A stretch of 64,000 bases of DNA from Actinomycetota bacterium (GCA_040880465.1 JBBDIK010000012.1:2353-66352), one strand, 5' to 3'; numbered from the stretch's first letter, positions 19,180 through 32,587 are shown. The notes: generated from the sequence alone by a model not told the origin. Made by a program: numbers and translations.

Positions 19180-19216
19180 CCACCGCGCGCTCATTCCGCG
19201 CAAGCATCGGATCTGA

Positions 19217-21034
19217 CTACTGCCCGGTGTACTCCGTGAACACCTGCACGTTGCCGTCGGGATCGGTCGCCACGACCTGCGTGTAGCCGGGCTGTGGGTC
19301 GATGCCCTTGCGGGTGTTGATGGCCGGGATCAACGGGAACGTCGAACCGGTCTGCTTGAGCCGGTTGTATGTCATCTCCGCCGAGGCGATCCAGAAGCTC
19401 ATGTACCCGCTCGGCACGCCGGCCCTGGGCAGTCCGTCGCGCGATGGCTTGGCGATGTAGATCCCGAACACGACGCCGCTGTCGGCCCACCAGCCTCGGT
19501 ACCCGGAGTCCGGGTACGGACGCCCGAGTTTCATGACGTCGCGGTAGAAGGTCTCGGCGGCCGTCAGGTCACTCACGGGGTAGCCCGAGTAGTCCAGCGA
19601 CAGGGCCCCGCCCGCGTGGACCTCCGCACCGACCACCATCGTCACGAGAGGCCTGGCGTTCGCGTTCAGCACGTGCGTAACGAATGCCGTGTCCCGGAAC
19701 GGGTGCGCACCGGTTCCCGTCAAGACCATCTCGTAGCTCACGACCGAACGGGTGCCGAGCGGCCGCACGCGGACCGAGTTGGCAGCCATGCTGGCGACCA
19801 GTCCACCGGAGGTGCGGTCGTAGCCGGACCAGTACTCGTTCGCCAGGGTGGTCGCCAGCGTCGAACCGGCCTCCAGCCCTCGCACGCGCGTCCGCGTGTC
19901 GTCGAACCAGCGGCCGGCCTTGTACATCGTCTGCATCGTGGCTCCATCCGTTCGCAGCCACGCGGTCGCGATCTTCTTCGCGGCGAGCGTCCTCGCATCC
20001 GTTCCGGTGAACCCGGTCGGCTCGGGCGGGACCCCAGAGCCGGCCGCCGTGAAGTTGCGCTGCAGGATGACGAACGGGTTCTCGGTCGGCCGGTCCAGCC
20101 CGACCGCGTACAGGTCCGATCCCTGCTTCAACAGGGTCGTGTCCGTGCCCTGGACGAACCGCACGCCGGCGGCCTTGAGTCGATCGCGTTCGGCCCGCAC
20201 ATCATCGACGTAGAAGACCGCCCAGCCGTTCGGCTTGCCGGGGGTGATCGTCGCCAGGCCGTTCAGCCGGGTCCGGTCCAGGATGAAGTGAGCGCCCTTG
20301 AGCTGGAACGAGGCTCGGTCGGCCGTGACGTACTCCGGCGGCCCGGCGAACTGCGAGTAGAAGGCAACTTGTCGGTTCATATCCTTGACCGGGGTCACCC
20401 AGTCGAACGGGAACGTCTCGGCGCCCGGCCTGCTGCGGCCGACCCGGAAGCTCAGGTTCCACGAGTCGGTCTGATGGGCGATCTTCCAGGAGCTGCCCAC
20501 CTTCGTGAACGCCTGCACGACCAGGCCCTGATCGGTGTAGCACCAGCGGGCGCCGCCCCGGACGTCGACCCAGTAGAGAGCGGTGGCCGACGAGCCCTCC
20601 GCCCACAGCTCCGCATGGTTGATCTTGAAGCTCTCGGCGATGACGCCGGTCGGGCGTTCGTAGGCGGTCCACTCGACCGGCAGGGCCGATGCCACCGCGT
20701 CGGCGCCCTGCTGGAGGCCGCTCGCGCCCCAGCGTCCGCTCATCTTCGTGACGTCGGAGGTGACGTAGGTGCGGTAGCCGGAGACGTCCATCGCGAGGTA
20801 GCGCTGCCAGGACTTGGTGATCGTCGAGATGAGCGCGTTCTTGTCGGCGGTGCTCGCGCTCGACGAAACGACCTCGGTGGCGGGGAACGAGACGGCGCCC
20901 GGCCCATCGCCACACACGGCGTTCGCCGGTTGCGCCGCAGACGTGATGCTCAGCACGATCGCGAACGCGGCGGTGATCGCCCCGTTGCGAAGGAGGTGTC
21001 CCCGTCGGCGCTGTGTCCTGCTCATCCCCATCAC
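19217..21034 (-). CDS. secreted protein with a duplicated (NTF2/SnoaL-like + VOC/glyoxalase-like) module
   Basis: Signal peptide (AITAAFAIVLSITSAAQPANA). There are two VOC-like segments, GWAVFYVDDV...AAGVRF and YMSFWIASAEMTYNRL...VATDPDGNVQVF. Each is preceded by an NTF2-like segment. Confidence 0.7.
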   Translation of the reverse strand: MMGMSRTQRRRGHLLRNGAITAAFAIVLSITSAAQPANAVCGDGPGAVSFPATEVVSSSASTADKNALISTITKSWQRYLAMDVSGYRTYVTSDVTKMSGRWGASGLQQGADAVASALPVEWTAYERPTGVIAESFKINHAELWAEGSSATALYWVDVRGGARWCYTDQGLVVQAFTKVGSSWKIAHQTDSWNLSFRVGRSRPGAETFPFDWVTPVKDMNRQVAFYSQFAGPPEYVTADRASFQLKGAHFILDRTRLNGLATITPGKPNGWAVFYVDDVRAERDRLKAAGVRFVQGTDTTLLKQGSDLYAVGLDRPTENPFVILQRNFTAAGSGVPPEPTGFTGTDARTLAAKKIATAWLRTDGATMQTMYKAGRWFDDTRTRVRGLEAGSTLATTLANEYWSGYDRTSGGLVASMAANSVRVRPLGTRSVVSYEMVLTGTGAHPFRDTAFVTHVLNANARPLVTMVVGAEVHAGGALSLDYSGYPVSDLTAAETFYRDVMKLGRPYPDSGYRGWWADSGVVFGIYIAKPSRDGLPRAGVPSGYMSFWIASAEMTYNRLKQTGSTFPLIPAINTRKGIDPQPGYTQVVATDPDGNVQVFTEYTGQ

Positions 21035-21263
21035 CCTTCCGTTGTCGGCGTTCCTACCCCTGTCATCGAGAGGAGAACGCGGCGACTGAACGTGTTTGCC
21101 CTGCGGTTTCCGACAGATAGGCCTGTCGGTTGTTGGTGATTCCGCAGCGCTAGTCCGGAATGACTACGCGAACCGAGTCATTGCGGGTCATCCTGGCGGG
21201 GAAGGCTCAGCCGGTGGGGCGCACATGCCGACAACCGGGGACAACGGATCAGGAGGTGCGGCG

Positions 21264-21740
21264 ATGGTGACGAGGATGCGATTCGACGAACTGGACCGGC
21301 AGATCGTCCACGTCCTACAAGGCGACGGCCGGGCATCGTTCGCCGAGTTGGCGCGAGAGTTGGGGGCGTCCGAGGCGACGATCCGCGCGCGGGTGGCGCG
21401 CCTGCTGCGCAGCGGCGCCGTGAAGGTCGTCGCGTCGGTGGATGCCTTGGAACTCGGATTCACGGTGGCGTACATCGGTGTTCGCGTCCGAGGGGGAGCG
21501 CTGGACCGGGTCCTGAAGGCCATGCGGGCAACGCCGGAGGTCACGTACGTGGTCGTGTGCGCGGGTTCGTTCGACCTGTTCGTCGAAGTGGTGTGCACGG
21601 ACGGTCCGGCACTGATGCGCCTCTTGGATGAGCGGATCAGACAGGCTCCCGGGGTCGAGTACGCGGAGACGTTCACCGTGCTGGATATCGCCAAGGATGA
21701 GTACCAATGGCCGGAGTCCGGCGTCTCGATCCCGGCCTGA
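21264..21740 (+). CDS. Lrp/AsnC family transcriptional regulator
   Basis: AGGAGG lies 7 nt upstream of the ATG at 21264. HTH segment DELDRQIVHVLQGDGRASFAELARELGASEATIRARVARL, followed by an AsnC-type ligand-binding fold. Confidence 0.85.
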   Translation: MVTRMRFDELDRQIVHVLQGDGRASFAELARELGASEATIRARVARLLRSGAVKVVASVDALELGFTVAYIGVRVRGGALDRVLKAMRATPEVTYVVVCAGSFDLFVEVVCTDGPALMRLLDERIRQAPGVEYAETFTVLDIAKDEYQWPESGVSIPA

Positions 21741-21741
21741 A

Positions 21742-22395
21742 CTACGCGCTGTAGCCGCGGAGGCCGCGGAGCTGGTCATCGACCGAGAGCATCGAGTTAT
21801 CCAGGTCGAAGCGTGCATACTCGGCGAAGAGTGGCGTCCAGACGGAGCCGAAGATCCGAGCGGGGGGCCCTTCCGCCTTGCCGCCGACCCGGTTCGTGGC
21901 GAACGGGAAGAGTGGGGAACCTTCGACCTTCTGCTCGCCGTTGGCGTCGAGGTTCGCGTCGAACCGGAACGCGCACGCGCCTTCGATCTTGATGATGGGG
22001 GAGGTTCCCTTCTCGACCTTGATGGCGGCTCGCTCCATCCCGATGTACTCGCCGATCAGCTCCTGGATGTCCGAGAACGGGCCGCCGTGGCGGCCGCTCA
22101 GGATCTCCTCGACCGCGCGGGCAACGTCGTCGGACGCCGACTCATCGACGATGATCCCCATCTCCCAGAACTCGCTGGTCCCGAGCTTCTCCGGGAAGAA
22201 GTTCACGAGTGCGAAATCCGAGCCGGAGAGGTCCGCGTGCTGGGTGGCGCCTTCGAGCTTCCCTTCCTGGACGCGGAAGAGGACGATGCCCTTGCACCCT
22301 CCGTGCGTGTCGTTAAGGCGGCCGTCGATCTGCCAGTGCTCGTCGACGTTGCACGAACACGTGGCGATGTACGCTCCGGCGATCCGCCAATCCAT
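21742..22395 (-). CDS. DUF1326-like protein
   Basis: N-terminal W-x-I-x-G...C-S-C pattern and a size typical of DUF1326. The assignment is from memory of the family. Confidence 0.6.
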   Translation of the reverse strand: MDWRIAGAYIATCSCNVDEHWQIDGRLNDTHGGCKGIVLFRVQEGKLEGATQHADLSGSDFALVNFFPEKLGTSEFWEMGIIVDESASDDVARAVEEILSGRHGGPFSDIQELIGEYIGMERAAIKVEKGTSPIIKIEGACAFRFDANLDANGEQKVEGSPLFPFATNRVGGKAEGPPARIFGSVWTPLFAEYARFDLDNSMLSVDDQLRGLRGYSA

Positions 22396-22507: not shown

Positions 22508-22795
22508 GTGACTGCAGGCAGCGATGGACCGGAAGGGGGCCTCGCGGAAGGCGATGAGGTCGCTCCCGGGTGCCGGTACTGCGGGCGAGCAACGTTCGAT
22601 CCGGACAAGCGAGACCGGCCGTGGGTCCGCGGCGTGGCTGCTGGGCTTCAGGTCCTCGTTTGCCCGGCGTGCCAGGCGGATCGGGCAGGCTGGGCCGACG
22701 AGCTGGACCGATGCACGGCGTGCGATTCCCCCCGGCTCTCTGCCATGCTTGGAGAGATCGTGTGCCGCGCATGTGGGCATGCATCGGGCGCTTAG
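22508..22795 (+). CDS. small Cys-rich protein with four CxxC pairs (double zinc-ribbon-like)
   Basis: CRYC, CPAC, CTAC and CRAC motifs. The 3' end overlaps tRNA-Val by 10 nt. No family recognised. Confidence 0.4.
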   Translation: MTAGSDGPEGGLAEGDEVAPGCRYCGRATFDPDKRDRPWVRGVAAGLQVLVCPACQADRAGWADELDRCTACDSPRLSAMLGEIVCRACGHASGA

Positions 22796-22860
22796 CTCAG
22801 TGGGAGAGCACTTCCCTTACAAGGAAGGGGTCGGGGGTTCAAATCCCTCAGCGCCCACCA
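22786..22860 (+). tRNA. tRNA-Val (anticodon TAC), CCA encoded
   Basis: Acceptor GGGCGCT/AGCGCCC, D arm GCTC/GAGC, anticodon arm CTTCC-CTTACAA-GGAAG, T arm GGGGG-TTCAAAT-CCCTC, then ACCA. Confidence 0.92.
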
Positions 22861-23203
22861 AAGAAATGCCAGGTCAGCAGTGTTGTCGTTCGCATCGCAC
22901 GTCTCGGATCCGCTGGCCTCGCTCGCTACGGTCAAGCGAAAGTCAATCGCACTCCTCACCCCACAGTTGAGCACTTCCCTCGGGGGCGCAAAGCACTCAC
23001 GCACTTGACCCGATGGTGTCGGGCAAGCAAGCTTGCCCGATGAACGCTCCTCACCCCGATCGGTGCCGCGGCACGGCTAGTCTTCGCCGATGAGAGTCGC
23101 GGAATCCCGTTTCGAGCATCTCGGAAGTGCCCAGGGTGCAATGGGCTTTCGTCTCGGTGGGCCTCACACGAACCAACGGATGGTCACATGCGAGGGCGAA
23201 GAC

Positions 23204-23929
23204 ATGTACGACCTCAGTGTCCACTGCGAAACGTGCGCGTTCACGTTTGAACGGGTTGGTGTTCCGAATCCATCCGCGCTGCCTGTATCGGTTCTTCGCG
23301 GTCGGCTTCGGCGGGGGCTGGAATCGCTCGATCGGGAGGTGGTCGAGGCGTACGCCGAGATTTTGCCGGAGGGTGACTACGTCGTCTCGCTCAGCGATCT
23401 CCGCCCCAAGCTCGTGCACCCGCTCGATGAGGATGACTATTTCGCGAATGAAGGTCGTGCGCTGTTCGGAACCGAGGCCCCCTTCTACGATCTCCCAGCA
23501 ACTCCGAGGACTCCCTACTACCGGGCGGATGGGGAAAGGACGTTCAACCCCGTCGGGAAGATGTGGGGATACAACACGGACGAGCCGTGGCCGCAAAGGG
23601 CAGCAAGCTTTGTCTTCCTTGCCCCAATGAACTCGATTAGTAGCCTCGACCCGAACACCCTGGCTGAGTACCGATCCTCCGCCGGTCGGGGTACCGCAGT
23701 CGCATTGTCCGTGCTCGATGCGAAGGCTCCGGTCGTCGGCTTCGACGCTGATCCTGACTATGAGGTCGACGCTCACTGGTGCTGGACCCACTACCTCCTG
23801 GATGGTCATCACAAGACTCGGGCCACTTCTCTCGAAGGGGACTCGCTCTCCCTGCTGTCGTTCACCGCCCTTGAAGAGGGCGTTTCCACGCGAGCCGATG
23901 TTGAGCAGTTGATAGCCCTCCTTGGGTGA
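23204..23929 (+). CDS. hypothetical protein (cassette 1)
   Basis: Protein-like composition from the ATG at 23204 (MYDLSVHCETCAF...). The opposite-strand 342-aa ORF is Arg/Gly-rich and starts inside repeat R1. No family recognised. Confidence 0.55.
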   Translation: MYDLSVHCETCAFTFERVGVPNPSALPVSVLRGRLRRGLESLDREVVEAYAEILPEGDYVVSLSDLRPKLVHPLDEDDYFANEGRALFGTEAPFYDLPATPRTPYYRADGERTFNPVGKMWGYNTDEPWPQRAASFVFLAPMNSISSLDPNTLAEYRSSAGRGTAVALSVLDAKAPVVGFDADPDYEVDAHWCWTHYLLDGHHKTRATSLEGDSLSLLSFTALEEGVSTRADVEQLIALLG

Positions 23930-23995
23930 ACCCCCCTGCCGCGATCGGGTGGAGAGGTCTTCATGCGACCACGCACCCTTGGTGCCCTCGATTCC

Positions 23996-24167
23996 GGTCA
24001 AGAAATAGTCAAGGAGCCGACGGTACTTGCCGGTACTTGTGTGACTCATGTGACTGCGGAAAACGAACGACTCCCGCATACATGCTGGTCAGAGCGTCGC
24101 AGCGCCGAGATAGAGAGTCTCTCTTACAAGGAAGGGGTCGCAGGTTCAAATCCTGCAGCGCCCACCA
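23996..24167 (+). repeat. R1: 172-bp arm + tRNA-Val 3'-half repeat
   Basis: GGTCAAGAAATAGTCAAGGAGCCGACGGTACTTGCCGGTACTTGTGTGACTCATGTGACT...CTTACAAGGAAGGGGTCGCAGGTTCAAATCCTGCAGCGCCCACCA. Confidence 0.95.
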
Positions 24168-24198
24168 ACCACGGGGGTTTCACGCGAGTGCTTTTCGT

Positions 24199-24223
24199 CC
24201 GGTCAAGCAGAATCCTTGACCGG
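24199..24223 (-). terminator. 9-bp stem / 7-nt loop hairpin 20 nt downstream of the 24244..24924 stop
   Basis: CCGGTCAAG-cagaatc-CTTGACCGG. There is no U tract on either strand, so it may be a protein-binding inverted repeat (it contains the GGTCAAG motif) rather than a terminator. Confidence 0.3.
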
Positions 24224-24243
24224 CTGGCGCGCGCGCCTCTTGC

Positions 24244-24924
24244 TTAGTCGAGCTGGATTCCAAGCCGACGCGAGACCTCCCGAACGAACGGAAGGTGGCG
24301 ATCGTTCGCGGCGGCCGCGTGTGCCTGCATGAGAGATGTTGCAGTCGCGAGGTCGCCGGATGCGTGACGCATGACGGCAAGGTCGAAGAGAGGTCGGGGG
24401 TATCTGAACGGGTCGTCGCCAGCGTCCCACTTCGCATGGATGGCCTCTCGGTCTGGGAAGGAATCGAGATAGGGAATCCCATACTCGGAGATGAGTTCTG
24501 ACATGCGAAGCCCGATCTCGGGAGTAGGTGGGTCAAGGCTCCACCAGCCCTCATCCCCGCGCTCCATGATGTGCCCAAGCCGTTGCAGGATCTGACAGTC
24601 GTGTGCACCGATGAAAGTCGGAGTTGTGGAGAACTGCACGCGGTGTATCTCTGGGATGAAGACTCCAAGGTTCACAGTGAAGGAGCCGTACTTCGAGGGT
24701 CCGAGTACCCGGGCGCGGCTCTCCATGACTCGTCGCTGGTCCCCAGCGGATAGATTTGGCGGGATCGGTTCGAAACGAGCCATCTCGAAGCCCAAGACAT
24801 GGGTGAGGCCGTCAGCAGTCAAACGGTTGAAGTTGTTTGCGCGCTTCCGGAAGCCAGCGGCCTTCATGATCGGGGCGACGTAGGTTGCCACGTCCTTCAT
24901 GCGCACTGCGATCTCGGTCGGCAT
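24244..24924 (-). CDS. DUF4304-like protein (cassette 2)
   Basis: N-terminal AAGFRKRANNFNR...HVLGFE pattern resembles DUF4304. This is the only cassette gene on the minus strand. Confidence 0.6.
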   Translation of the reverse strand: MPTEIAVRMKDVATYVAPIMKAAGFRKRANNFNRLTADGLTHVLGFEMARFEPIPPNLSAGDQRRVMESRARVLGPSKYGSFTVNLGVFIPEIHRVQFSTTPTFIGAHDCQILQRLGHIMERGDEGWWSLDPPTPEIGLRMSELISEYGIPYLDSFPDREAIHAKWDAGDDPFRYPRPLFDLAVMRHASGDLATATSLMQAHAAAANDRHLPFVREVSRRLGIQLD

Positions 24925-24964
24925 GAGGACGAGGATAGTCCCGACTCACGGGCGCAAGGTAGCC

Positions 24965-25135
24965 GGTCAAGAAATAGTCAAGGAGCCGACGGTACTTGAC
25001 GGTACTTGTGTGACTCATGTGACTACAGAAGGCGAACGCCTCCCGCATACATGCTGGTCACAGCGTTGTCGGGTGGGGTGGGCGTTCTCCCTTACAAGGA
25101 AGGGGTCGCAGGTTCAAATCCTGCAGCGTCCACCA
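24965..25135 (+). repeat. R2: 171-bp arm + tRNA-Val 3'-half repeat
   Basis: 7 mismatches to R1 over the first ~102 nt (hand alignment). The linker differs. The tRNA half is identical to R1 except AGCGTCC in place of AGCGCCC. Confidence 0.95.
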
Positions 25136-25281
25136 AGGCTTGTCGTGTTTCGGGTGATGCTTGACGGAAGCATGACGAACATGCTGTGGTGAACCTGGCT
25201 AGCGGCTGACCCCGAAGGTCAAAGCGGGGTTCAATGACTCCCACCCGAGGGGTCCTGAGCCTGGTGGACGAGGAGGCGGTT

Positions 25282-26622
25282 ATGCGGCGAAGGATCACTA
25301 CCGCCATCGGCGTGGCCGGCGTAGTCGTTGCCTTGCTCGCGCCGGCAGGCCCCGTTCAAGCCGAAGCCCAGATCCGCTGGAGCGCTGAACACTCGGTGAC
25401 TGACGGGCCGGATGCTGCCTTCGACATCGCGCTCAGTCCTGACGCGGGAAGCGTGTATGTGACCGGCACTGTCACGATCGCGTACGACTCGGCTACTGGC
25501 TCGGAGCTATGGGTCGCCCCACCGGGGGGTCGCGCGATAGCCGTCAGCGGCGATGGTTCGATGGTGTTCGTCTCACAGGTCGCTGGCGGCGCACCCGTTT
25601 GCGGCGGCGAGACTACCGCGCTGGATTCCGAGACCGGTCTGACGCTTTGGAGCGTCCCCTTCGGCGGGCTCCTCACCTCAGATCCGGTCGGGTCAGCCCT
25701 CTATGTTGGAAACAGCGCAACGTCGTCATTCTGGCCTGACTGCCAAGGGCGCCTGATCGCTCTCAACCCAGAGGACGGCGTCGTCCGATGGCAACGGAAC
25801 CTTGCGAACGACGTGAGCATCAGGGCCATCGAGGTCTCCCCGGACGGACGGCGTGTCTTCGCCGCAGGTTCACAACTGTGGTGGGACGACTACGCCTGCG
25901 AGGAAGAGGGGCTTCCCGGAGGGAACATGTGGATTGCGACATTCCGGGCGGTTGGTGGCTCCCGCGTCTGGGACCGGACGATAAGTGCGCCGGGCTCCTC
26001 GGTTGACGGCACATCGTCTCTTGCCTTGTCCCCCTCAGGGGACCGCGCGTATCTGTACGGGGATTGGCACCCGTACGGAAGTTCGTGTTGGGGAAGGTCC
26101 GCGCCACGCGCGGCGACGCTCACGCTTCGGGCAGCGACCGGCCAGGAACAAGAAGTGGCGGTGTTCAATCACCGCAATCCGCAGATCTTCGGATGCGAGG
26201 GAGGAAGCCCCGCGGCAGGCCTCCTCGCAATCGCTCCAAGTGGACGAGCTTTGGTACATGCGGGGATCCAGTCAGGTGATTGCAAGTCCACCAACATCGT
26301 GATCGTGGCTAGTGACACACGCGGCAACGTTGAGTGGTCGCGTGAGATTGACTTGGGATCCGATGACCGTCCGCTCAGTGTGCTGTATGGACCGCAGGGC
26401 GGACGCGTGTACGTCGGGGGCGTAAGTGGCGACAGCGTGTTCGTGACCTCGCTCTCCAAGAAGAATGGGAGTCGACAGTGGCTCCAGCAGATTCCAGGAG
26501 CAGACTTTGGAGCGATGGGTGTGGGCGGCCCCGATCCATCCGTTTTCATAGCCGGATCAACGGGTGGCCCGGATTCAGACATGCTTACGGCGTCGATTGG
26601 CCCAGCGCAGTCACCGCCGTGA
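25282..26622 (+). CDS. secreted PQQ-like/BamB-like beta-propeller repeat protein (cassette 3)
   Basis: GAGGAGG lies before the ATG at 25282. Signal peptide (AIGVAGVVVALLAPAGPVQA). Repeated G-x-x-x-W/LW blade-like motifs. Confidence 0.7.
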   Translation: MRRRITTAIGVAGVVVALLAPAGPVQAEAQIRWSAEHSVTDGPDAAFDIALSPDAGSVYVTGTVTIAYDSATGSELWVAPPGGRAIAVSGDGSMVFVSQVAGGAPVCGGETTALDSETGLTLWSVPFGGLLTSDPVGSALYVGNSATSSFWPDCQGRLIALNPEDGVVRWQRNLANDVSIRAIEVSPDGRRVFAAGSQLWWDDYACEEEGLPGGNMWIATFRAVGGSRVWDRTISAPGSSVDGTSSLALSPSGDRAYLYGDWHPYGSSCWGRSAPRAATLTLRAATGQEQEVAVFNHRNPQIFGCEGGSPAAGLLAIAPSGRALVHAGIQSGDCKSTNIVIVASDTRGNVEWSREIDLGSDDRPLSVLYGPQGGRVYVGGVSGDSVFVTSLSKKNGSRQWLQQIPGADFGAMGVGGPDPSVFIAGSTGGPDSDMLTASIGPAQSPP

Positions 26623-26699
26623 GCGGACCGCTCGCCCCTTCCCTGAGCACCGGCATGACACATGCGAGGCGACCAAGAGCGTCTCGGTAGACGCTGAGC

Positions 26700-26833
26700 A
26701 GTCAAGAAATAGTCAAGGAGCCGACGGTACTTGCCGGTACTTGTGTGACTCATGTGACTGCGGAAAACGAACGCTCCCCGCATCCATGCTGGTCAGAGCG
26801 TCGTTGCGCGAGATGGAGAGTCTCTCTTACAAG
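26700..26833 (+). repeat. R3: arm copy truncated in the anticodon loop (ends ...CTCTTACAAG)
   Basis: The arm matches R1 closely, including the linker GAGATGGAGAGTCT. Similarity stops at 26833 and 15 nt later tRNA-Val #2 begins. Confidence 0.9.
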
Positions 26834-26848
26834 CACGAGTTCATATCG

Positions 26849-26921
26849 GGGCGCTTAGCTCAGTTGGGAGAGCGCCTGCTTTACACGCAGGAGGCCGGGG
26901 GTTCGAGTCCCTCAGCGCCCA
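26849..26921 (+). tRNA. tRNA-Val (anticodon TAC), second copy
   Basis: Acceptor GGGCGCT/AGCGCCC, D arm GCTC/GAGC, anticodon arm CCTGC-TTTACAC-GCAGG, T arm GGGGG-TTCGAGT-CCCTC, discriminator A then CC. Confidence 0.88.
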
Positions 26922-26938
26922 CCGACTAAAGTGATGCG

Positions 26939-27982
26939 ATGCCGAAGACGGAAGGGGCACGGGCGCCGATGAAGATTCTTGCCGTGTGCGCGCTCCTCGT
27001 TGTCGCCTGCGTAGCCTGCTCAAACGACCCGTCCTCGGACGGATCAGCAGCGTCGCCCTCATCCAACGCGGAAACGCCGCCGAGTGATCAGAAGACGTTC
27101 ACGCACGAGGGGATCGAACTTCAGTATCCGGCTGATTGGTCGCTTGCCGTTGCTCTCGAAGGCGCAGGCGTGTCGAACGGTTGCTCCGAGGGATTCTGGG
27201 CTGCGAGGACAGAGATCCCCGGCGGTGGGATTGCAGGCGTAGGACGCTGTCCGTCGTCCTTTGATTGGCCGCCTGAAGGCGAGACGATTCCAGAAGCGCT
27301 CCGACGAGAGCTTGCGATGAAGTCACCGGAGGATGTTGTCTCTATCCGCGCTCTAGATGCGAGCGAGATGCAAGGGGCCGAGGGAATCTGGATTGCGACA
27401 TCTTTGGATGCCGCAGCAGCGAAGAACTTCGGCATCTCGGGGCCATCCGACGGTGTGATTATTCGCGCCGCGGTTCCTTCTGAGGACCCAATGCGGCCCG
27501 ACATCTATGAAGTCTTCTGCCAAGTGCCAGCGGCTGATGCAAACATCGGCTTGAACGGATGCGAACTGATGGCGGAAACATTCCAGTTGACGCCGAGTTT
27601 GAGTTCTCCTATCAAGGCCGCCAGCGTCGATTGCAACCCGTCGGAGGTGCAACTGGGCGAGATTCTCGTCGAGAATGGCAACGCGATTGTGGCCCTTGCT
27701 GAAAACCAGACCCCCGGTGGCTACAAGCACTATGTCCAAGAGGCGGGAGTCTTCCTGGACGACGCGCGTGCTGCAGCGGAGAGCGCGCCTCCAGAGTTGG
27801 CTCCGTCGTGGGAGACGGCCATCGACGGGCTGGAACACATCCGAAGTGGCTACGCAGACTCGATCACGGCCTCGACAAGCCGAGAGCAAGATGCGGCGTA
27901 CCAGGAAGTCCTGCGCGGTCAGCAACTCCAAGCGACGGTCTTCAACGATCTAGATCAACAGGGATGCATCACTGGTGTCTAG
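26939..27982 (+). CDS. lipoprotein, function unknown (cassette 4)
   Basis: Signal peptide with a lipobox (MKILAVCALLVVACVAC-S). An alternative ATG lies at 26969. Confidence 0.7.
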   Translation: MPKTEGARAPMKILAVCALLVVACVACSNDPSSDGSAASPSSNAETPPSDQKTFTHEGIELQYPADWSLAVALEGAGVSNGCSEGFWAARTEIPGGGIAGVGRCPSSFDWPPEGETIPEALRRELAMKSPEDVVSIRALDASEMQGAEGIWIATSLDAAAAKNFGISGPSDGVIIRAAVPSEDPMRPDIYEVFCQVPAADANIGLNGCELMAETFQLTPSLSSPIKAASVDCNPSEVQLGEILVENGNAIVALAENQTPGGYKHYVQEAGVFLDDARAAAESAPPELAPSWETAIDGLEHIRSGYADSITASTSREQDAAYQEVLRGQQLQATVFNDLDQQGCITGV

Positions 27983-28016
27983 CCACGGTGCCTCCGGCAC
28001 CACTCGGATTGCGCGA

Positions 28017-28469
28017 ATGGTTGCTCATCGGTGCCTCGCAGTATTCATGCTGCTGGTGCTGTCGGGATGTTCGGGCAGCACGCCGCCCGTTGAGCCAGAT
28101 GCGCCGCCTGAAGAGTCGAGTCCAGGCCACTCCATCCACTACGAGGTGCGGCTTCGGGACGGCGGATCGGCCCCCTTCACTGCGACATTCACCTCCCCGA
28201 CAGGCACGGTGAGCACGTTTGAGGGAAGCACTCCTTGGGCCAGCGAGACGGAGGACTTTCAGGACGGTTCGATGCTGTCATTGCAGGCCGAGATATCCCA
28301 TGAGCAGAAGAGCCCGCTGCTGTGCAATCTGGTCGATGATGGCGGCGGAGGCTCCTGGACGATGGGACAGATGGGTGATCCGATTGATGCGTGCGCAGTG
28401 ACGTACACGCTCGGCCTGTGGCCGCCCGACGACAACGACCTTTCGAGCCCCCTGATCCGCGACGGTTGA
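28017..28469 (+). CDS. small lipoprotein, MmpS-like pattern (cassette 4)
   Basis: MVAHRCLAVFMLLVLSGC lipobox. The HYEV...PW...C...DG...C pattern is reminiscent of MmpS (tentative). An alternative GTG at 27975 overlaps the upstream stop. Confidence 0.6.
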   Translation: MVAHRCLAVFMLLVLSGCSGSTPPVEPDAPPEESSPGHSIHYEVRLRDGGSAPFTATFTSPTGTVSTFEGSTPWASETEDFQDGSMLSLQAEISHEQKSPLLCNLVDDGGGGSWTMGQMGDPIDACAVTYTLGLWPPDDNDLSSPLIRDG

Positions 28470-28527
28470 AGCCGCTCAATCCAATCAACCGGCTGTGCTG
28501 GCTAGACACTCTGCCAACCCCGGCCCC

Positions 28528-28697
28528 GGTCAAGAAAGAGTCAAGGAGCCGACGGTACTTGACGGTACTTGTGTGACTCATGTGACTACGGAAAACGAAC
28601 GCTCCCCGCATACATGCTGGTCAGAGCGTTGCGCAGCGCGGAGGACTATCTCCCTTACAAGGAAGGGGTCGCAGGTTCAAATCCTGCAGCGCCCACC
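28528..28697 (+). repeat. R4: 170-bp arm + tRNA-Val 3'-half repeat
   Basis: Full-length copy. The tRNA half is identical to R1 through GCGCCCACC. Confidence 0.95.
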
Positions 28698-28816
28698 GAT
28701 TGTTCTCGGAGGTCAAGCACGCTGTCCGGTCATTCATGACCATTCGGTAATCGGCATGTGCTCTTCGTCTTGCGACGACAAGGAGATTGCCCAGTGGCCG
28801 GGCGCACCCGGGCGGC

Positions 28817-29194
28817 ATGGGTCATGATCGCCCCGTGAAGGCCATTGGGTTGCTTGCGTTCATGCTTGCCCTTCTAACCGCGTGCGCGGCATCGGTGCCC
28901 TCCGCTGTCAACGGGTCACCGCATGAAGACGCGGAGCAGTATTGCCTGTTCGACTCTGGCTTGGAGACGGTCTGGCAGGGGACTCCGGAGACCATGGATC
29001 GTCCATGGAATGAGCTCTGTGTCATGCGCGGAATGGTCCCCCGGCTTGCACGACGTTGCACCGACGCTGACAAGCTCGAGCGATGGGTTCGCAGTCTCGA
29101 CCCAGCTGGTCGAAGGGAAACGCGAGAGGACTGTCGGAAGGAAGTGTCTGATCGCCCTCAGCCGGTTCCCGCTCCACCGGGGTGGCAGGGCTAG
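28817..29194 (+). CDS. small lipoprotein, function unknown (cassette 5)
   Basis: KAIGLLAFMLALLTAC lipobox. Start ambiguous: ATG 28817 or GTG 28835. Confidence 0.55.
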   Translation: MGHDRPVKAIGLLAFMLALLTACAASVPSAVNGSPHEDAEQYCLFDSGLETVWQGTPETMDRPWNELCVMRGMVPRLARRCTDADKLERWVRSLDPAGRRETREDCRKEVSDRPQPVPAPPGWQG

Positions 29195-29370
29195 GCCGGT
29201 TGCCAGCGCGCTATTCTTCGCCGATGACCCGCGTGATGGAGTCCCGATTCGAGCCTTGTTGGCGATGCCAAGGGCGAGTCGTTGCCCGAGCAGTTGAGGC
29301 TGAGGGCCCAGCGGATGGACACGGTCTTTCGGTCGCTGCGCGAGGGTCTTCAGAGCGGTAAGGTGGGCAG

Positions 29371-29598
29371 ATGAAGTACTTCCTGATCCGATACGAGAGG
29401 CACACCGGCCTGCTGAAAGGGCTCGACGAGTTCGGGTCGGCGCGGCGCGACGAGGCGCTTCAGGCTCGCTTCCAGTTGGAGCGTGCATCGGACGGGAGCG
29501 ATGACATCGAGATCGCATTGCTCGGCGCCGAGACGTTAGATGATCTGAGGGCAACGCACTCGCGTTACTTCCAACGCGAAGCGCCCATCGCAGTCTGA
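29371..29598 (+). CDS. small hypothetical protein, 75 aa (cassette 5)
   Basis: ATG preceded by GGTAAGGTGGG. Balanced, charged composition (MKYFLIRYERHTGLL...). Confidence 0.45.
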   Translation: MKYFLIRYERHTGLLKGLDEFGSARRDEALQARFQLERASDGSDDIEIALLGAETLDDLRATHSRYFQREAPIAV

Positions 29599-29620
29599 AC
29601 GCCCTACTCGAAGGGCGGCC

Positions 29621-29803
29621 ATGTTCGGGAAGAAGCGCGGCGGCGCACCGGGCGTTGCGGAGGTCGATACCTTCTGGGGATTCGTGATCGCGCTGATGGC
29701 GACAGCAGCCGACTATGGCGTGCGTCTGGCAAGTGAGTTCGCGAGGGAACGCCCACCTCCGATGATCCTTGCGGAGATGCGGGGGGAGGGGGCAGATGAC
29801 TGA
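29621..29803 (+). CDS. small hypothetical protein, 60 aa (cassette 5)
   Basis: ORF only, with one hydrophobic segment (FWGFVIALMATAA). Weak support. Confidence 0.25.
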   Translation: MFGKKRGGAPGVAEVDTFWGFVIALMATAADYGVRLASEFARERPPPMILAEMRGEGADD

Positions 29804-29841
29804 GGAAGGCATTAGGGGATCAGGGGAAAGGGCGTGAGCGG

Positions 29842-30318
29842 ATGAAGCGAAGCCGGATCTTGGTCGCCGCCACGCTTGGGCTCGCGGTGGTCTTCATCGC
29901 AGTGCTGGCGATGGCCCTGGTTCGGGCTGGCCACAATGGTCCCGCGGGAGAGGGCTGGGAAAACGCCGGATCACTGGAGGAACTCGACGCAACCAGGGTG
30001 GTCAAGGTCCCTGATCAGACCGTGTATCTGGTTGCCAGCGACCTCACACCCCTGGCGCTTTCGGCGGTTGATCCGCACTTGGGTGAGATCATCGCGTACT
30101 GCGAAAGCAGCGGCTGGTTCGAGGATCCTGATCACGGCTCGAAGTACGACGGGCAGGGGTACTACGCGATGGGTCCCTCACCTCGCGGAATGGATCGAGT
30201 AGCCGTGACGGTGTTCCAGGGCGATGTGTGGATCCAGCCTGCGAACGATACGGAGGGTCCTCCGCGCGGGGCCGACAACCCTGCGCACGAGGATCCGCGA
30301 GGTCCCTTCTGTTCGTGA
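29842..30318 (+). CDS. membrane-anchored Rieske-fold-like protein lacking the cluster-binding Cys residues (cassette 5)
   Basis: Signal anchor. DPHLGE...DPDHGSKYD aligns with the Rieske boxes CPHLGC...CPCHGSxF, with Asp/Glu where the Cys residues should be. Confidence 0.6.
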   Translation: MKRSRILVAATLGLAVVFIAVLAMALVRAGHNGPAGEGWENAGSLEELDATRVVKVPDQTVYLVASDLTPLALSAVDPHLGEIIAYCESSGWFEDPDHGSKYDGQGYYAMGPSPRGMDRVAVTVFQGDVWIQPANDTEGPPRGADNPAHEDPRGPFCS

Positions 30319-30356
30319 GCGAACGCCCTCACCGATGTGAATCAGCGCGAGGTCTC

Positions 30357-30422
30357 GGTCAAGGAATAGTCGAGGAGCCGACGGTACTTGTCGGTACTTG
30401 TGTGACTCATGTAACTACGGAT
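30357..30422 (+). repeat. R5: truncated arm copy (first ~65 nt only, no tRNA half)
   Basis: GGTCAAGGAATAGTCGAGGAGCCGACGGTACTTGTCGGTACTTGTGTGACTCATGTAACTACGGA, after which similarity is lost. Confidence 0.9.
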
Positions 30423-30489
30423 AGTGTTTCGGATCGCCTCTTTCCCCGGTTCTGGGACCGCTTCGGTCACGTTGAGGAGGGCACACGTC

Positions 30490-30780
30490 ATGGGAAAGTT
30501 CTTGATCGAGATCCCTCATGCGGAGGACGCCGCGGAGTGCACCGGGATCGTCAAGGTGTTTCTGTCGTCCGGCTCCCACCTGCTAACCAACGCGGAATGG
30601 GGATGCATGGACGGCGTGCACAACGCATGGATCATCGTGGAGGTGGACACGAAGGACGAGGCTCTCGCCATCGTCCCCCCAGCACTTCGCTCCGTCGCCA
30701 CAGTGACTGCGCTCAACTCCTTCACCTTGGACTACATCAACGCGGAGATCGAGCGCCTTGCGGGCGACGGCGTGGGGTAG
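30490..30780 (+). CDS. small hypothetical protein, 96 aa
   Basis: GAGGAGG lies 10 nt before the ATG at 30490. Its stop is 9 nt before the arr start. Confidence 0.55.
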   Translation: MGKFLIEIPHAEDAAECTGIVKVFLSSGSHLLTNAEWGCMDGVHNAWIIVEVDTKDEALAIVPPALRSVATVTALNSFTLDYINAEIERLAGDGVG

Positions 30781-30789
30781 CGAGACGGT

Positions 30790-31206
30790 ATGGGGAGCAA
30801 GCCGGTGGCAGCCACCGACGGCCTGAGTTCGCAGCACTTCTACCACGGTACGCGGGCTGATCTGAAACTCGGAGACCTCGTCGAGCCCGGCCAAACCTCT
30901 AACTACGGCAAGAGGAACAAGACGGTCTACGTCTATCTGACCGGCACCCTGGATGCGGCCATCTGGGGGGCGGAGCTAGCCCTCGGCGAAGGACCCGGCA
31001 GGATCTACGTGGTGGAACCGACCGGCCCGATCATGGACGACCCCAATCTGACAAACACGAGATACCCGGGGAATCCGACGAAGTCATACCGCTCCCGGGA
31101 GCCGCTGCGGGTCACGGGCGAAGTCGCAGAGTGGCAAGGGCACTCCCCCGAGACGATCCAGGCCATGAGGGACAGGATCAAGGGTCTTGAGCCGATCGAC
31201 GACTAG
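30790..31206 (+). CDS. arr: NAD+--rifampin ADP-ribosyltransferase
   Basis: Arr-family signature blocks FYHGT(R/K)A, WGAELA, GRIYVVEPTGP..DDPNLT and PGNPTKSYRS.EPLRV.GEV..W.GH. Confidence 0.9.
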   Translation: MGSKPVAATDGLSSQHFYHGTRADLKLGDLVEPGQTSNYGKRNKTVYVYLTGTLDAAIWGAELALGEGPGRIYVVEPTGPIMDDPNLTNTRYPGNPTKSYRSREPLRVTGEVAEWQGHSPETIQAMRDRIKGLEPIDD

Positions 31207-31230
31207 TGTTCCCTCGTAGGAAGGAGTGGG

Positions 31231-32121
31231 ATGGACTCGCGACCGATGACCGAGGACGACATCTCGTCCTGTGTCGACATCTTCTACACCTCGTTCAATG
31301 CCCTTCATCGCCAGCACGGTTTGGCGGAAGAGGACGCCGCAGACTCCGGATGGCTGGCGGGTGCACTTCGACACTTCCTCGAGACGGACCCGCACGGCGG
31401 CCGGATCGCGATGCAGGATGGCAACCCGGTCGCGTTCGCGTCGGCGTTCCGACGGCACCGTTACTGGTTCCTCTCGTTCTTGTTCGTCCTCCCTGATGCG
31501 CAGGGATACGGGATCGGACGGTCACTCCTCGACGAGCTGGTGCCACAGGAGGATCCGGCCGATGTCGTCCGGGCCACGGTCGTGGAGTCGTTCCAGCCGG
31601 TCTCGACGGGGTTGTACGCGAGCTACGGCATGACGCCCCGGTCGATCCGATACGGGCTCAGCAGGGTCGGCCGGCCGGACGCACTCCCTGAACTTCCCGC
31701 CGACCTCGGGAAGGAGGAGTTGGCTCCGGCCGATCTCGAGGACATGGCGAAGCTCGATGGGCGGATCCTGGGCTTCGAGCGGTCGGCCGACCACGGGTGG
31801 TGGGATGCCTCCGGCATGAAGGGGTACGTCTATCGGCACGGCGACGAACCGGTGGGATACGCGTACGTGGACGACGGTTTCGTCGGGCCGGCTCTTGCGA
31901 TCGATGAGCAAACCTTGTGTTCGATGGTCGCCGATATCGTGCGCGATGCAGATGATCCCGCGGCCGTGACGGTGAATACCTATGGTGATGCCGCTGCGGT
32001 GTTCCAGATGCTCCTTCGTGCAGGCGCTCGGATCGATGATGACAAGCACCGATTCGTCTACGGCTCCAGTTCCGGACCATTGCCTCCCAGCTACATCAAT
32101 TTCTCCGGCTTCCTGCCGTAG
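31231..32121 (+). CDS. GNAT family N-acetyltransferase
   Basis: Acetyl-CoA motif A (LFVLPDAQGYGIGRSLL). The substrate is unknown. Confidence 0.75.
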   Translation: MDSRPMTEDDISSCVDIFYTSFNALHRQHGLAEEDAADSGWLAGALRHFLETDPHGGRIAMQDGNPVAFASAFRRHRYWFLSFLFVLPDAQGYGIGRSLLDELVPQEDPADVVRATVVESFQPVSTGLYASYGMTPRSIRYGLSRVGRPDALPELPADLGKEELAPADLEDMAKLDGRILGFERSADHGWWDASGMKGYVYRHGDEPVGYAYVDDGFVGPALAIDEQTLCSMVADIVRDADDPAAVTVNTYGDAAAVFQMLLRAGARIDDDKHRFVYGSSSGPLPPSYINFSGFLP

Positions 32122-32140
32122 TTCGGGGCAGGGCTTAGCG

Positions 32141-32587
32141 TCAGCGGGCGCCGATCACCTTGAACAGGTGGCCGCAGTCGATGCACTTCGTGTTGACGCG
32201 GGCGGCCGGGCCGGCGTGGCCGAACGGCTGGGTGTGCTTGGATCCGCACGAGGGACAGACCGTCCGTCCGGCCCCGGCGCCGCGGTCGACCCACACGCGT
32301 TCGATCGAGACGGTTCCCCCCGCTTCCTCCAAGATGTCGAACGCCGACGAGGCCTCCTCCCGCGATGGGGTCTCCAGGACGAGCAGCGGAATGGCGTCGC
32401 CGGGGGAGGACGGGGGCTCGGGCATGAGGGCGGCGAGCGCCGCCGCGAGTTCGGTCTTCCGACCGGGGTCGAGGGCGGTCAGCGTCACCCGTGCCCCCAA
32501 GACTTGGTCGGGTCCCCCGCTTGCCTCTTCCATCACGCCCTCATCGTGTCCTGAGATGACAGTATGGGGGATAGCCCGGTGCACCAT
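32141..32587 (-). CDS. hypothetical protein with a C-terminal zinc ribbon (CPSC...CIDC)
   Basis: ORF with two CxxC pairs. An alternative ATG lies at 32533. Confidence 0.45.
   Translation of the reverse strand: MVHRAIPHTVISGHDEGVMEEASGGPDQVLGARVTLTALDPGRKTELAAALAALMPEPPSSPGDAIPLLVLETPSREEASSAFDILEEAGGTVSIERVWVDRGAGAGRTVCPSCGSKHTQPFGHAGPAARVNTKCIDCGHLFKVIGAR

Follow-up and report, generated by a model that had tools for sequence, protein, structure and literature searches.

Stacked integrase-less units at a tRNA-Val gene of an Actinomycetota metagenome-assembled genome: a probable product of serial site-specific integration

Genomic islands at tRNA genes follow a well described principle: if an integrase inserts an element, the attP of the element provides the new 3' part of the tRNA gene and the original part is moved to the far end, behind the P arm (PMC4383910). 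Tandem arrays of such islands are counted by Islander only if each member has an integrase, and four tandems of at least three members were found among 3919 islands (PMC4383910). Cis-mobilisable elements (CIMEs), whose accretion has been reviewed, are defined as decay products of ICEs (integrative and conjugative elements) or of IMEs (integrative and mobilisable elements); they usually comprise several kb with recognisable remnants (PMC5704250). Tycheposons are defined by hallmark genes, namely a tyrosine or large serine recombinase and replication genes (10.1101/2020.12.28.424599). Here we describe a locus which is in some aspects similar to, and in others different from, each of these systems. 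It is located in a 64-kb stretch of DNA from the metagenome-assembled genome of an uncultured member of the Actinomycetota (MAG; GCA_040880465.1, JBBDIK010000012.1:2353-66352), which is part of a 325-kb contig and is hereafter called the window. An intact tRNA-Val gene is followed by five direct copies of one repeat, and small, unrelated genes lie between these copies. With somewhat better than even confidence, we favour the explanation that positions 22786-30424 represent an islet which was built when small elements, each with an attP and none with an integrase, were integrated one after the other at tRNA-Val by site-specific recombination, by means of a tyrosine integrase acting in trans and in the manner of a CIME-like accretion.

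All five repeat copies (R1-R5, Table 1) downstream of the tRNA-Val(TAC) gene are direct ones, and their starts are 969, 1735, 1828 and 1829 bp apart. An earlier note on this DNA had described such an array, and its starting point and its counts held up: ARAGORN and Rfam agree on the intact tRNA-Val gene, while the repeat finder, a 39-nt arm pattern (exactly five matches in the window vs. none in 100 shuffles) and nhmmer all led to the same five copies. No sixth arm copy was found in the 64-kb window by nhmmer with the arm profile. The proposed make-up of three parts stands as well, with revised lengths of 101 nt for the arm, 24-25 nt for the linker and 44-47 nt for the tRNA half. The left edge of all five arms is at the identical nucleotide. 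Among R1-R4, the arms share 91-98% pairwise identity (94 of 101 positions between R1 and R2, consistent with the seven differences counted before), whereas the adjoining linkers are only 50-84% identical, a difference which suggests that the arm is under constraint. The tRNA half, found in R1, R2 and R4, extends from the anticodon loop (CTTACAAGG) to CCACC(A/G)A and is 98-100% identical between these copies. What the earlier note called a variable linker is indeed variable, while its nature had to be corrected: it aligns with the acceptor and part of the D-arm of the tRNA, which identifies it as a decayed tRNA 5' half. This origin also explains why ARAGORN made a third tRNA-Val call at 28624-28697, in R4, that was not confirmed by Rfam.

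The evidence which carries our explanation lies in the tRNA alleles. Intact tRNA-Val #1 has the T-stem GGGGG/CCCTC and the end CCACCAA, while the intact syntenic tRNA-Val genes of two related species have the T-stem GCAGG/CCTGC, with the end CCACCGA in one of them (L048, GCA_964640385.1). The halves of R1, R2 and R4 possess the T-stem of the relatives' intact gene, and the R4 half ends in CCACCGA, too. These displaced halves, which end at 24167, 25135 and 28697, are all encoded on the plus strand in the same orientation as the intact tRNA-Val. The T-stem of tRNA-Val #1 is foreign and, since it is compensated, functional. Consequently, tRNA-Val #1 can be read as a regenerated attL-type gene, with a native 5' part and with the T-arm and 3' end of the last-integrated element. 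Judged from the sequence, the allele swap between tRNA-Val #1 and the halves is the classical attL/attR signature: the regenerated tRNA at the left, the arm and the displaced fragment at the right. The same swap is found independently in another relative (contig L044 of GCA_040960315.1), where the intact tRNA ends in CCACCA and the displaced half in CCACCGA. To present the arm and the tRNA half as an undescribed type of recombination site, as had been done before, was thus an overstatement, as a P arm followed by a displaced tRNA 3' fragment is just what is seen in an attR. Since tRNA-Val #1 and R1 have CTTACAAGGAAGGGGTCG in common before they diverge, and since the break of R3 follows right after CTTACAAG, strand exchange would have taken place in the anticodon-loop region, the common 'A' sublocation.

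A second intact tRNA-Val(TAC) gene was missed in the earlier note. In R3, the order is arm, linker, CTTACAAG, CACGAGTTCATATCG and then the complete tRNA-Val #2, which differs from tRNA-Val #1 in its anticodon stem (CCTGC/GCAGG) and in its T-loop and ends in CCACCGA. If the units of the array are delimited core to core (E1-E5), tRNA-Val #2 is probably cargo of E4 that stands in for the usual tRNA 3' half. In the simplest reading, E4 was inserted into the R3 core and carried a whole replacement tRNA, and the half behind R4 is the one displaced from R3. Equally possible is a deletion between the anticodon loop of R3 and the region upstream of tRNA-Val #2.

The arm comprises three tandem pairs of direct repeats: GTCAAG-N5-GTCAAG, CGGTACTTG-N-CGGTACTTG and TGTGACT-N2-TGTGACT. 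These pairs repeat with periods of 11, 10 and 9 bp, at a distance of ~75-125 nt from the core. All ten occurrences of GGTACTTG in the window are inside arms, as are nine of the ten occurrences of TGTGACT. We take this direct-repeat layout to be that of arm-type, Xis-type or accessory-protein sites in the attP arms of lambda-type systems. Beyond the core, the motif GTCAAGC is found once past each of the four complete cores, at +70 nt for tRNA-Val #1, +35 nt for R1, +24 nt for R2 (inverted) and +15 nt for R4; four of its seven occurrences in 64 kb are thus within 15-70 nt downstream of complete cores, and none follows tRNA-Val #2. Given this motif past each complete core, the internal junctions would structurally represent attP sites, each with a P arm, a core and a P'-like motif. 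Two other readings of the repeat were tried and rejected. An attC-like hairpin was dismissed, as the fold of R4 as single-stranded DNA was not significant compared to shuffles (z = -1.44 for the plus and -1.24 for the minus strand) and as the repeat is made of direct repeats. The arm as a gene remnant (minus strand, ATG-AGT-CAC, MSHTSTGKYRRLL...) was dismissed because the copies differ from one another by non-synonymous changes which cluster between the repeats.

To compare the locus, we reached relatives via cluster members of the DUF1326 protein that is encoded just upstream of tRNA-Val #1. The three genomes obtained share 83-88% nucleotide identity with the flanks of the window. All three possess the syntenic tRNA-Val(TAC), and the window arm was found in none of them, arm-profile nhmmer included. 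In L048 and L047, the 1.4 kb next to the tRNA-Val gene carry a HemolysinCabind gene, and genes for a Zn-ribbon protein, a 54-aa protein and a glyoxalase come after this segment; in L048, the segment is without arm, tRNA half or array. Homology to the window ends 3 nt past the tRNA and picks up again at window position 32141. In GCA_040960315.1, the left contig (L044) comprises tRNA-Val, the gene of a 122-aa lipoprotein, a different sequence that is fused to a tRNA-Val 3' half, and a further segment up to the contig end, while the right contig (L056) carries genes for a major facilitator superfamily (MFS) transporter and a 146-aa protein, both unrelated to the window, before synteny is back at window position 32137. 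The locus is thus variable within the same synteny limits in two other genomes, from 3 nt past the tRNA to 32137-32141. Different contents between fixed limits make the interval from tRNA-Val to the Zn-ribbon gene a hotspot with fixed boundaries and genome-specific contents. The comparison of relatives had been proposed in the earlier note, and it revealed no array in L048 and a different cassette in GCA_040960315.1. It also showed that the variable region does not end at R5, as assumed before, and extends to ~32140, where synteny resumes. Two further routes were less productive: homologues of the glyoxalase led to two long contigs, neither of them syntenic and both without tRNA-Val, and the native 44-nt tRNA half, searched across GTDB for other arrays, was found in one species only, as a single copy.

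In L044, homology to the repeat of the window is limited to the tRNA half; the sequence in front of this displaced half is not homologous to the arm and was kept out of the arm family. At L044 517-640 (minus strand) it holds an inverted CATGTGACT, a 9-mer identical to the TGTGACT repeat of the window, which may point to a different arm family or may be a chance match.

Each of the units between the cores is 0.97-1.9 kb in size and carries one to four genes, most of them co-oriented. The GC content at third codon positions (GC3) of the cargo is 0.66-0.78, compared to 0.86-0.89 in flanking genes, and the regional GC content drops to 0.60-0.64. For the E1 gene, GC3 is 0.70, and the NCBI annotation likewise gives a product of 241 aa. 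Gaps of 38-77 nt separate cargo and arm, and 76-343 nt lie between a core and the first gene. The cargo is both foreign and compact. Genes of the distal part (30490-32121), which are not present in the two relatives compared, show intermediate GC3 values of 0.78-0.85. The lipoprotein of E5 has a counterpart with 42% identity in the relative with contig L044, where it is encoded by the sole gene of the cassette at the corresponding locus. The intervening segments were said to be unrelated save for one imperfect repeat, which is correct: the sole part that they have in common is a segment of ~150 bp with 73% identity. It is found at 23040-23215 in E1, upstream of the gene, and at 29180-29375 in E5, between the lipoprotein gene and a 75-aa gene. 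The lengths of its indels are not multiples of three, and one may think of a leader or regulatory sequence common to both units, or of a remnant.

Table 1. Coordinates of the tRNA-Val genes, repeat copies, cassette units and neighbouring genes in the window.
Feature	Position	Strand	Content and remarks
95-aa cysteine-rich (zinc-finger-like) open reading frame (ORF)	22508-22795		3' end overlaps first bases of tRNA-Val #1; sequence kept upstream of the tRNA in 3/3 relatives
Intact tRNA-Val(TAC) #1	22786-22860	+	ARAGORN; Rfam 73.6 bits
Intact tRNA-Val(TAC) #2	26849-26923	+	ARAGORN; Rfam 72.2 bits; 15 nt after R3 break
R1	arm 23996-24097, linker 24098-24122, tRNA half 24123-24167	+	
R2	arm 24965-25066, linker 25067-25090, tRNA half 25091-25135	+	
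R3	arm 26700-26801, linker 26802-26825, core stub 26826-26833	+	core stub CTTACAAG; broken in anticodon loop
R4	arm 28528-28629, linker 28630-28653, tRNA half 28654-28697	+	ends CCACCGA
R5	truncated arm 30357-30424	+	~68 nt; no linker, no tRNA half
E1	22861-24167	+	GGTCAAGC 22930-22937; one gene 23204-23929, 241 aa, no Pfam family; ends in R1
E2	24168-25135	+	GGTCAAGC 24201-24208, inverted copy 24215; DUF4304 gene 24244-24924 (-); ends in R2
E3	25136-26833	+	GCTTGAC (inverted motif) 25159-25165; secreted PQQ_2 beta-propeller gene 25234-26622; ends in R3
E4	26834-28697	+	tRNA-Val #2; predicted lipoprotein genes 26939-27982 and 27975-28469; ends in R4
E5	28698-30424	+	GGTCAAGC 28711-28718; lipoprotein gene 28787-29194; small genes 29371-29598, 29621-29803 and 29842-30318; ends in R5
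Distal variable part	30425-32140	+	no att repeat at right end
Distal genes (Pfam)	30490-30780		96-aa protein
	30790-31206		Arr-ms rifampin ADP-ribosyltransferase
	31231-32121		GNAT acetyltransferase

Genes that could have moved these units were not found in the window. A Pfam search of the called genes and the long ORFs of the array, antisense included, revealed no tyrosine or serine recombinase and no transposase domain in 64 kb, in agreement with the earlier note; in particular, Phage_integrase, Resolvase/Recombinase and rve domains are absent from window genes and long ORFs. Neither were phage, defence or mobility families detected in the cassettes by Pfam, PHROGs and PADLOC, the sole exception being one small protein with a match to a PHROG whose function is unknown and a weak match to a PADLOC model. 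Each unit thus has arm and core at its right, core and GTCAAGC at its left, and no mobility genes, as is expected of CIMEs. Among the hallmarks of tRNA islands, an intact tRNA gene (tDNA) with 3' fragments on the same strand, an allele swap and a differently occupied site in relatives were all found, while an integrase per island was not.

In the scenario that we favour, each unit would be a non-autonomous element of 0.97-1.9 kb, whose circle contained little beyond an attP and one to four cargo genes. This attP would consist of a P arm with the three repeat pairs, the decayed tRNA 5' half, a core in which the tRNA-Val sequence is matched between the anticodon loop and the 3' end, and a short P' side with one GTCAAGC. 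The arm repeats would be bound by a heterobivalent tyrosine integrase whose gene is located elsewhere, on a helper element or at another locus, and strands might be exchanged between the anticodon loop and the variable loop. After integration, a working tRNA would be restored on the left, while the right end would consist of the P arm and the tRNA 3' half that was displaced. Elements that arrive later could then enter the regenerated tRNA or any resident core, so that cassettes would stack up, and the arm would recur because related elements integrated repeatedly. We infer that the units moved as minimal elements rather than having decayed in place. A tandem accretion of cis-mobilisable elements that are served in trans was one of two readings offered in the earlier note, and the allele swap, the variable locus in relatives and the recombinase-free cassettes speak in its favour.

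Evidence from outside the window is consistent with the role of the repeat as an attachment site. One JGI metagenome contig with the arm was found, the otherwise unrelated L001 (Ga0163144_10081797). A 34-nt repeat block of its arm is identical to the window, while the rest of the arm has diverged, and it is fused to a tRNA-Val-like 3' part with the loop CTGACAC (anticodon GAC). Arm and tRNA-Val 3' half thus go together in different organisms and with different isoacceptors, and arm copies away from tRNA-Val sequence were found neither in the window nor in L001. Dispersal of the repeat independently of tRNA-Val, which would have marked it as a MITE (miniature inverted-repeat transposable element) or a repetitive extragenic palindromic (REP) sequence, was accordingly not observed: all five window copies belong to the array and the L001 copy is on a tRNA-Val-like half. 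At L001 2815-4070, an IS3-family insertion sequence element (HTH_Tnp_1 orfA and rve orfB) is located in the left end of the arm, where the first GTCAAG repeat was removed. The search for a copy beside a recombinase, as proposed in the earlier note, thus succeeded with respect to an outside copy, while the IS3 transposase was rejected as the cognate recombinase, as it is merely inserted into the arm.

Several points weigh against this scenario. First, no integrase was found anywhere, thus its central actor is hypothetical. The arm was not found in 185,579 GTDB species representatives, in IMG/VR or in phage and plasmid collections, and no helper or integrase that carries the arm was found in these collections or in JGI metagenomes. 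The GTDB and IMG/VR searches employed an exact 24-nt arm core and, for GTDB, one genome per species; when phages and plasmids were searched by blastn in its distant mode, the tRNA part alone was matched, and with relaxed arm patterns, all that IMG/VR yielded were tandem repeats or iterons of low-GC phages, which are unrelated. With an evidence base of one MAG and one metagenome copy, the arm family is rare or tiny, or poorly sampled. Second, the cargo proteins are singletons at 90% clustering of ~15 billion proteins, and no cassette was found in a second context: in eight clusters the protein of the window is the only member, two clusters comprise one short Logan contig in addition, and none has a member from another organism. 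Third, R3 and R5 are damaged and, therefore, the array is at least partly inert now. Fourth, the spacing of GTCAAGC varies (15, 24, 35 and 70 nt) and the motif is once inverted, which is atypical for the arm-type sites of a single integrase. Finally, the order of the cassettes depends on the MAG assembly, and no circle, excision junction or polymorphism within a population was observed.

The alternative that survives best, and to which we assign a real, yet clearly lower probability, is decay in place. Five autonomous elements, similar to actinomycete integrative and conjugative elements (AICEs), prophages or islands and each with its own integrase, would have integrated serially and lost their backbones afterwards, which is the classical CIME route. 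Such a route has been proposed for most known tandems (PMC5704250), and remnants together with scattered partial tRNAs were reported in Prochlorococcus islands (10.1101/2020.12.28.424599). The visible damage at R3 and R5 and the loss of the att site at the far right end fit to this idea, and autonomous parents could have maintained the conservation of the arm. However, no pseudogene fragment of an integrase or backbone was detected by Pfam in the long ORFs of either strand in any of the five segments, which are almost wholly filled by intact, unrelated genes. In addition, the arm starts at the same nucleotide in five of five copies and GTCAAGC is at most 70 nt past every complete core; decay would therefore require five independent deletions that stopped at the limits of attP on both sides. 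Thus, the missing remnants and the compact boundaries argue against decay in place.

One might speculate further, with slightly less confidence than we grant to decay, that the units are minimal lambda-type gene cassettes. In that case, non-replicating circles, composed of one to four genes and a complete attP with its arm and a decayed tRNA-Val copy inside, would be propagated, and caught at tRNA-Val, by a dedicated tyrosine integrase whose gene lies elsewhere, and would provide Actinomycetota with an expandable, integron-like reservoir that employs double-stranded, heterobivalent att chemistry.

A dedicated integron-like platform, in which a host-encoded tyrosine recombinase captures, excises and reshuffles attP cassettes as an adaptive gene reservoir, was the other reading of the earlier note, and we consider it improbable. 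The cassette size of 0.97-1.9 kb, the one to four small and mostly co-oriented genes and the compactness do resemble integron cassettes, and clusters of attC sites lacking integron-integrases (CALINs) have no neighbouring integrase either (PMC11389934). In addition, the protein family of the E1 gene is widespread and one 43%-identical member is encoded inside an attC cassette array of another organism. That array (L052 1-10000; ENA ERZ25039588 contig_63359) is long, holds small co-oriented genes and attC-like repeats of ~60-100 nt (GCAGCTGAC ... GTTGGGC), and looks like a classical chromosomal integron cassette array. However, neither an integrase next to the primary site nor an intI with attI and Pc beside the first cassette was found in the window. 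Upstream of tRNA-Val #1 are the Zn-finger ORF, DUF1326 and an AsnC regulator, and the former two are kept in array-less relatives. The recombination site is a lambda-type one whose arms are built of direct repeats, rather than an attC that folds into a hairpin. One of the cassettes is in inverted orientation, a search for promoter-like sites gave nothing, the array is known from a single genome and no shuffling was observed. Hence, the locus lacks what defines an integron, and at most a functional analogy may remain.

Even less probable is an assembly artefact by which single cassettes of different strains were threaded into one array via the shared 170-bp repeat. The source is a MAG, the contigs that Logan assembled from k-mers of the same run (SRR27977663) are interrupted within tRNA-Val #1 and within the R4 half, and the contigs of the relatives likewise end within the tRNA-Val locus. 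However, every repeat has a unique 24-25-nt linker and copy-specific single nucleotide polymorphisms, by which the order can be settled with long k-mers or paired reads. A wrong order would leave the cassettes with their att ends in existence and our account of integration intact, with strain-level variation added. Least probable of all is that the repeat is no recombination site and instead a regulatory or RNA element (a promoter or terminator module, or a processing signal that resembles a tRNA) or else a repeat of the MITE/REP type that was copied beside genes: the repeat does end tRNA-like, R4 is accepted by ARAGORN and the GTCAAG/TTGAC motifs resemble -35 boxes, yet a structured RNA was rejected for want of covariation beyond the inherited T-arm (covariation term 0.25 kcal/mol) and of Rfam matches other than the true tRNAs, no promoter-like sites and no excess of terminator-like sites were found, and neither the confinement of the copies to the array and to the tRNA-Val-like half of L001 nor the allele swap between tRNA-Val #1 and the halves would be explained.

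Besides the array, a second variable spot is located just to its left, at 19189-21745. It comprises a 605-aa ORF and the AsnC-type regulator, both without counterpart in L047 and L048, where DUF1326 abuts a DEAD-box helicase. In L044, the gene of a 792-aa PAS histidine kinase replaces the 605-aa ORF and the AsnC-type regulator.

Integrase-less islets beside tRNA genes are common and their origin is usually dismissed as decay. The locus described here is an unusually clean record in this regard: it combines five minimal cassettes, att arms that are complete and kept by selection, a regenerated tRNA with a foreign, compensated T-stem, and relatives without the array or with other content. If the cassettes were true non-autonomous units, those that hitch on the integrase of others could shrink to an attP and one gene, and tRNA loci could be cassette reservoirs outside of integrons. 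The 101-nt arm can serve as a probe for the helper integrase and defines a substrate for recombination assays.

How does this locus compare to known systems? Recombinase-less modules that stack at one chromosomal site are found in the composite islands of the staphylococcal cassette chromosome (SCC) at rlmH and among Xer-dependent modules, such as integrative mobile elements exploiting Xer (IMEX) and pdif modules. There, the modules are bounded by a repeat of the 3' end of the target and the recombinase is encoded elsewhere. Unlike the array, they depend on Ccr serine recombinases or XerCD, on short, simple sites without long arms and on targets other than tRNA genes. Closer in structure are the tandem tRNA islands known from Islander and TIGER: as in the array, a regenerated tDNA is followed by displaced direct 3' fragments, the block of identity starts in the anticodon loop and reaches the 3' end, the site of a relative is array-free, and newer elements push older ones outward. 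In contrast to Islander arrays, the five members found here are only 0.97-1.9 kb each and lack an integrase.

The CIMEs, such as those related to ICESt1 of Streptococcus thermophilus and the toxicogenic regions of Streptomyces (PMC5704250), resemble the units in having att sites on both sides and no genes for integration or transfer, in their tandem arrangement at the 3' end of a target gene and in their presumed reliance on the integrase of a related element. The units described here differ, as they are minimal (attP and one to four genes) and without remnants, occur five in series and have no known helper. Like the array, the tycheposon islands of Prochlorococcus are anchored at a tRNA, neighbouring elements are separated only by partial tRNAs, and cargo modules gather together with degenerate remnants at one tRNA (10.1101/2020.12.28.424599). 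However, their hallmark genes (tyrosine or large serine recombinase, primase/helicase) were not found here by Pfam or PHROGs, the host belongs to another phylum, and a recurring 101-nt arm is not part of the tycheposon description cited. With integrons and CALINs (PMC11389934) the array shares small, mostly co-oriented and unrelated cassettes, each closed by a conserved recombination site, and with CALINs also the lack of an adjacent integrase; the cargo family of E1 is found in an integron cassette as well. Its att sites, in contrast, are double-stranded lambda-type sites whose arms are made of direct repeats and whose core derives from a tRNA, and intI, attI and Pc are absent.

Taken together, a regenerated tRNA with displaced fragments, tandem stacking and integrase-less members are each of a kind already known (PMC4383910, PMC5704250, 10.1101/2020.12.28.424599, PMC11389934). 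What is unusual is their combination: five members, each of which is approximately an attP with one to four genes, an arm that is 91-98% identical next to a drifting linker, and one member that carries a whole tRNA. It is equally unusual that all five members are integrase-less, fall between 0.97 and 1.9 kb and share an arm boundary at the same nucleotide.

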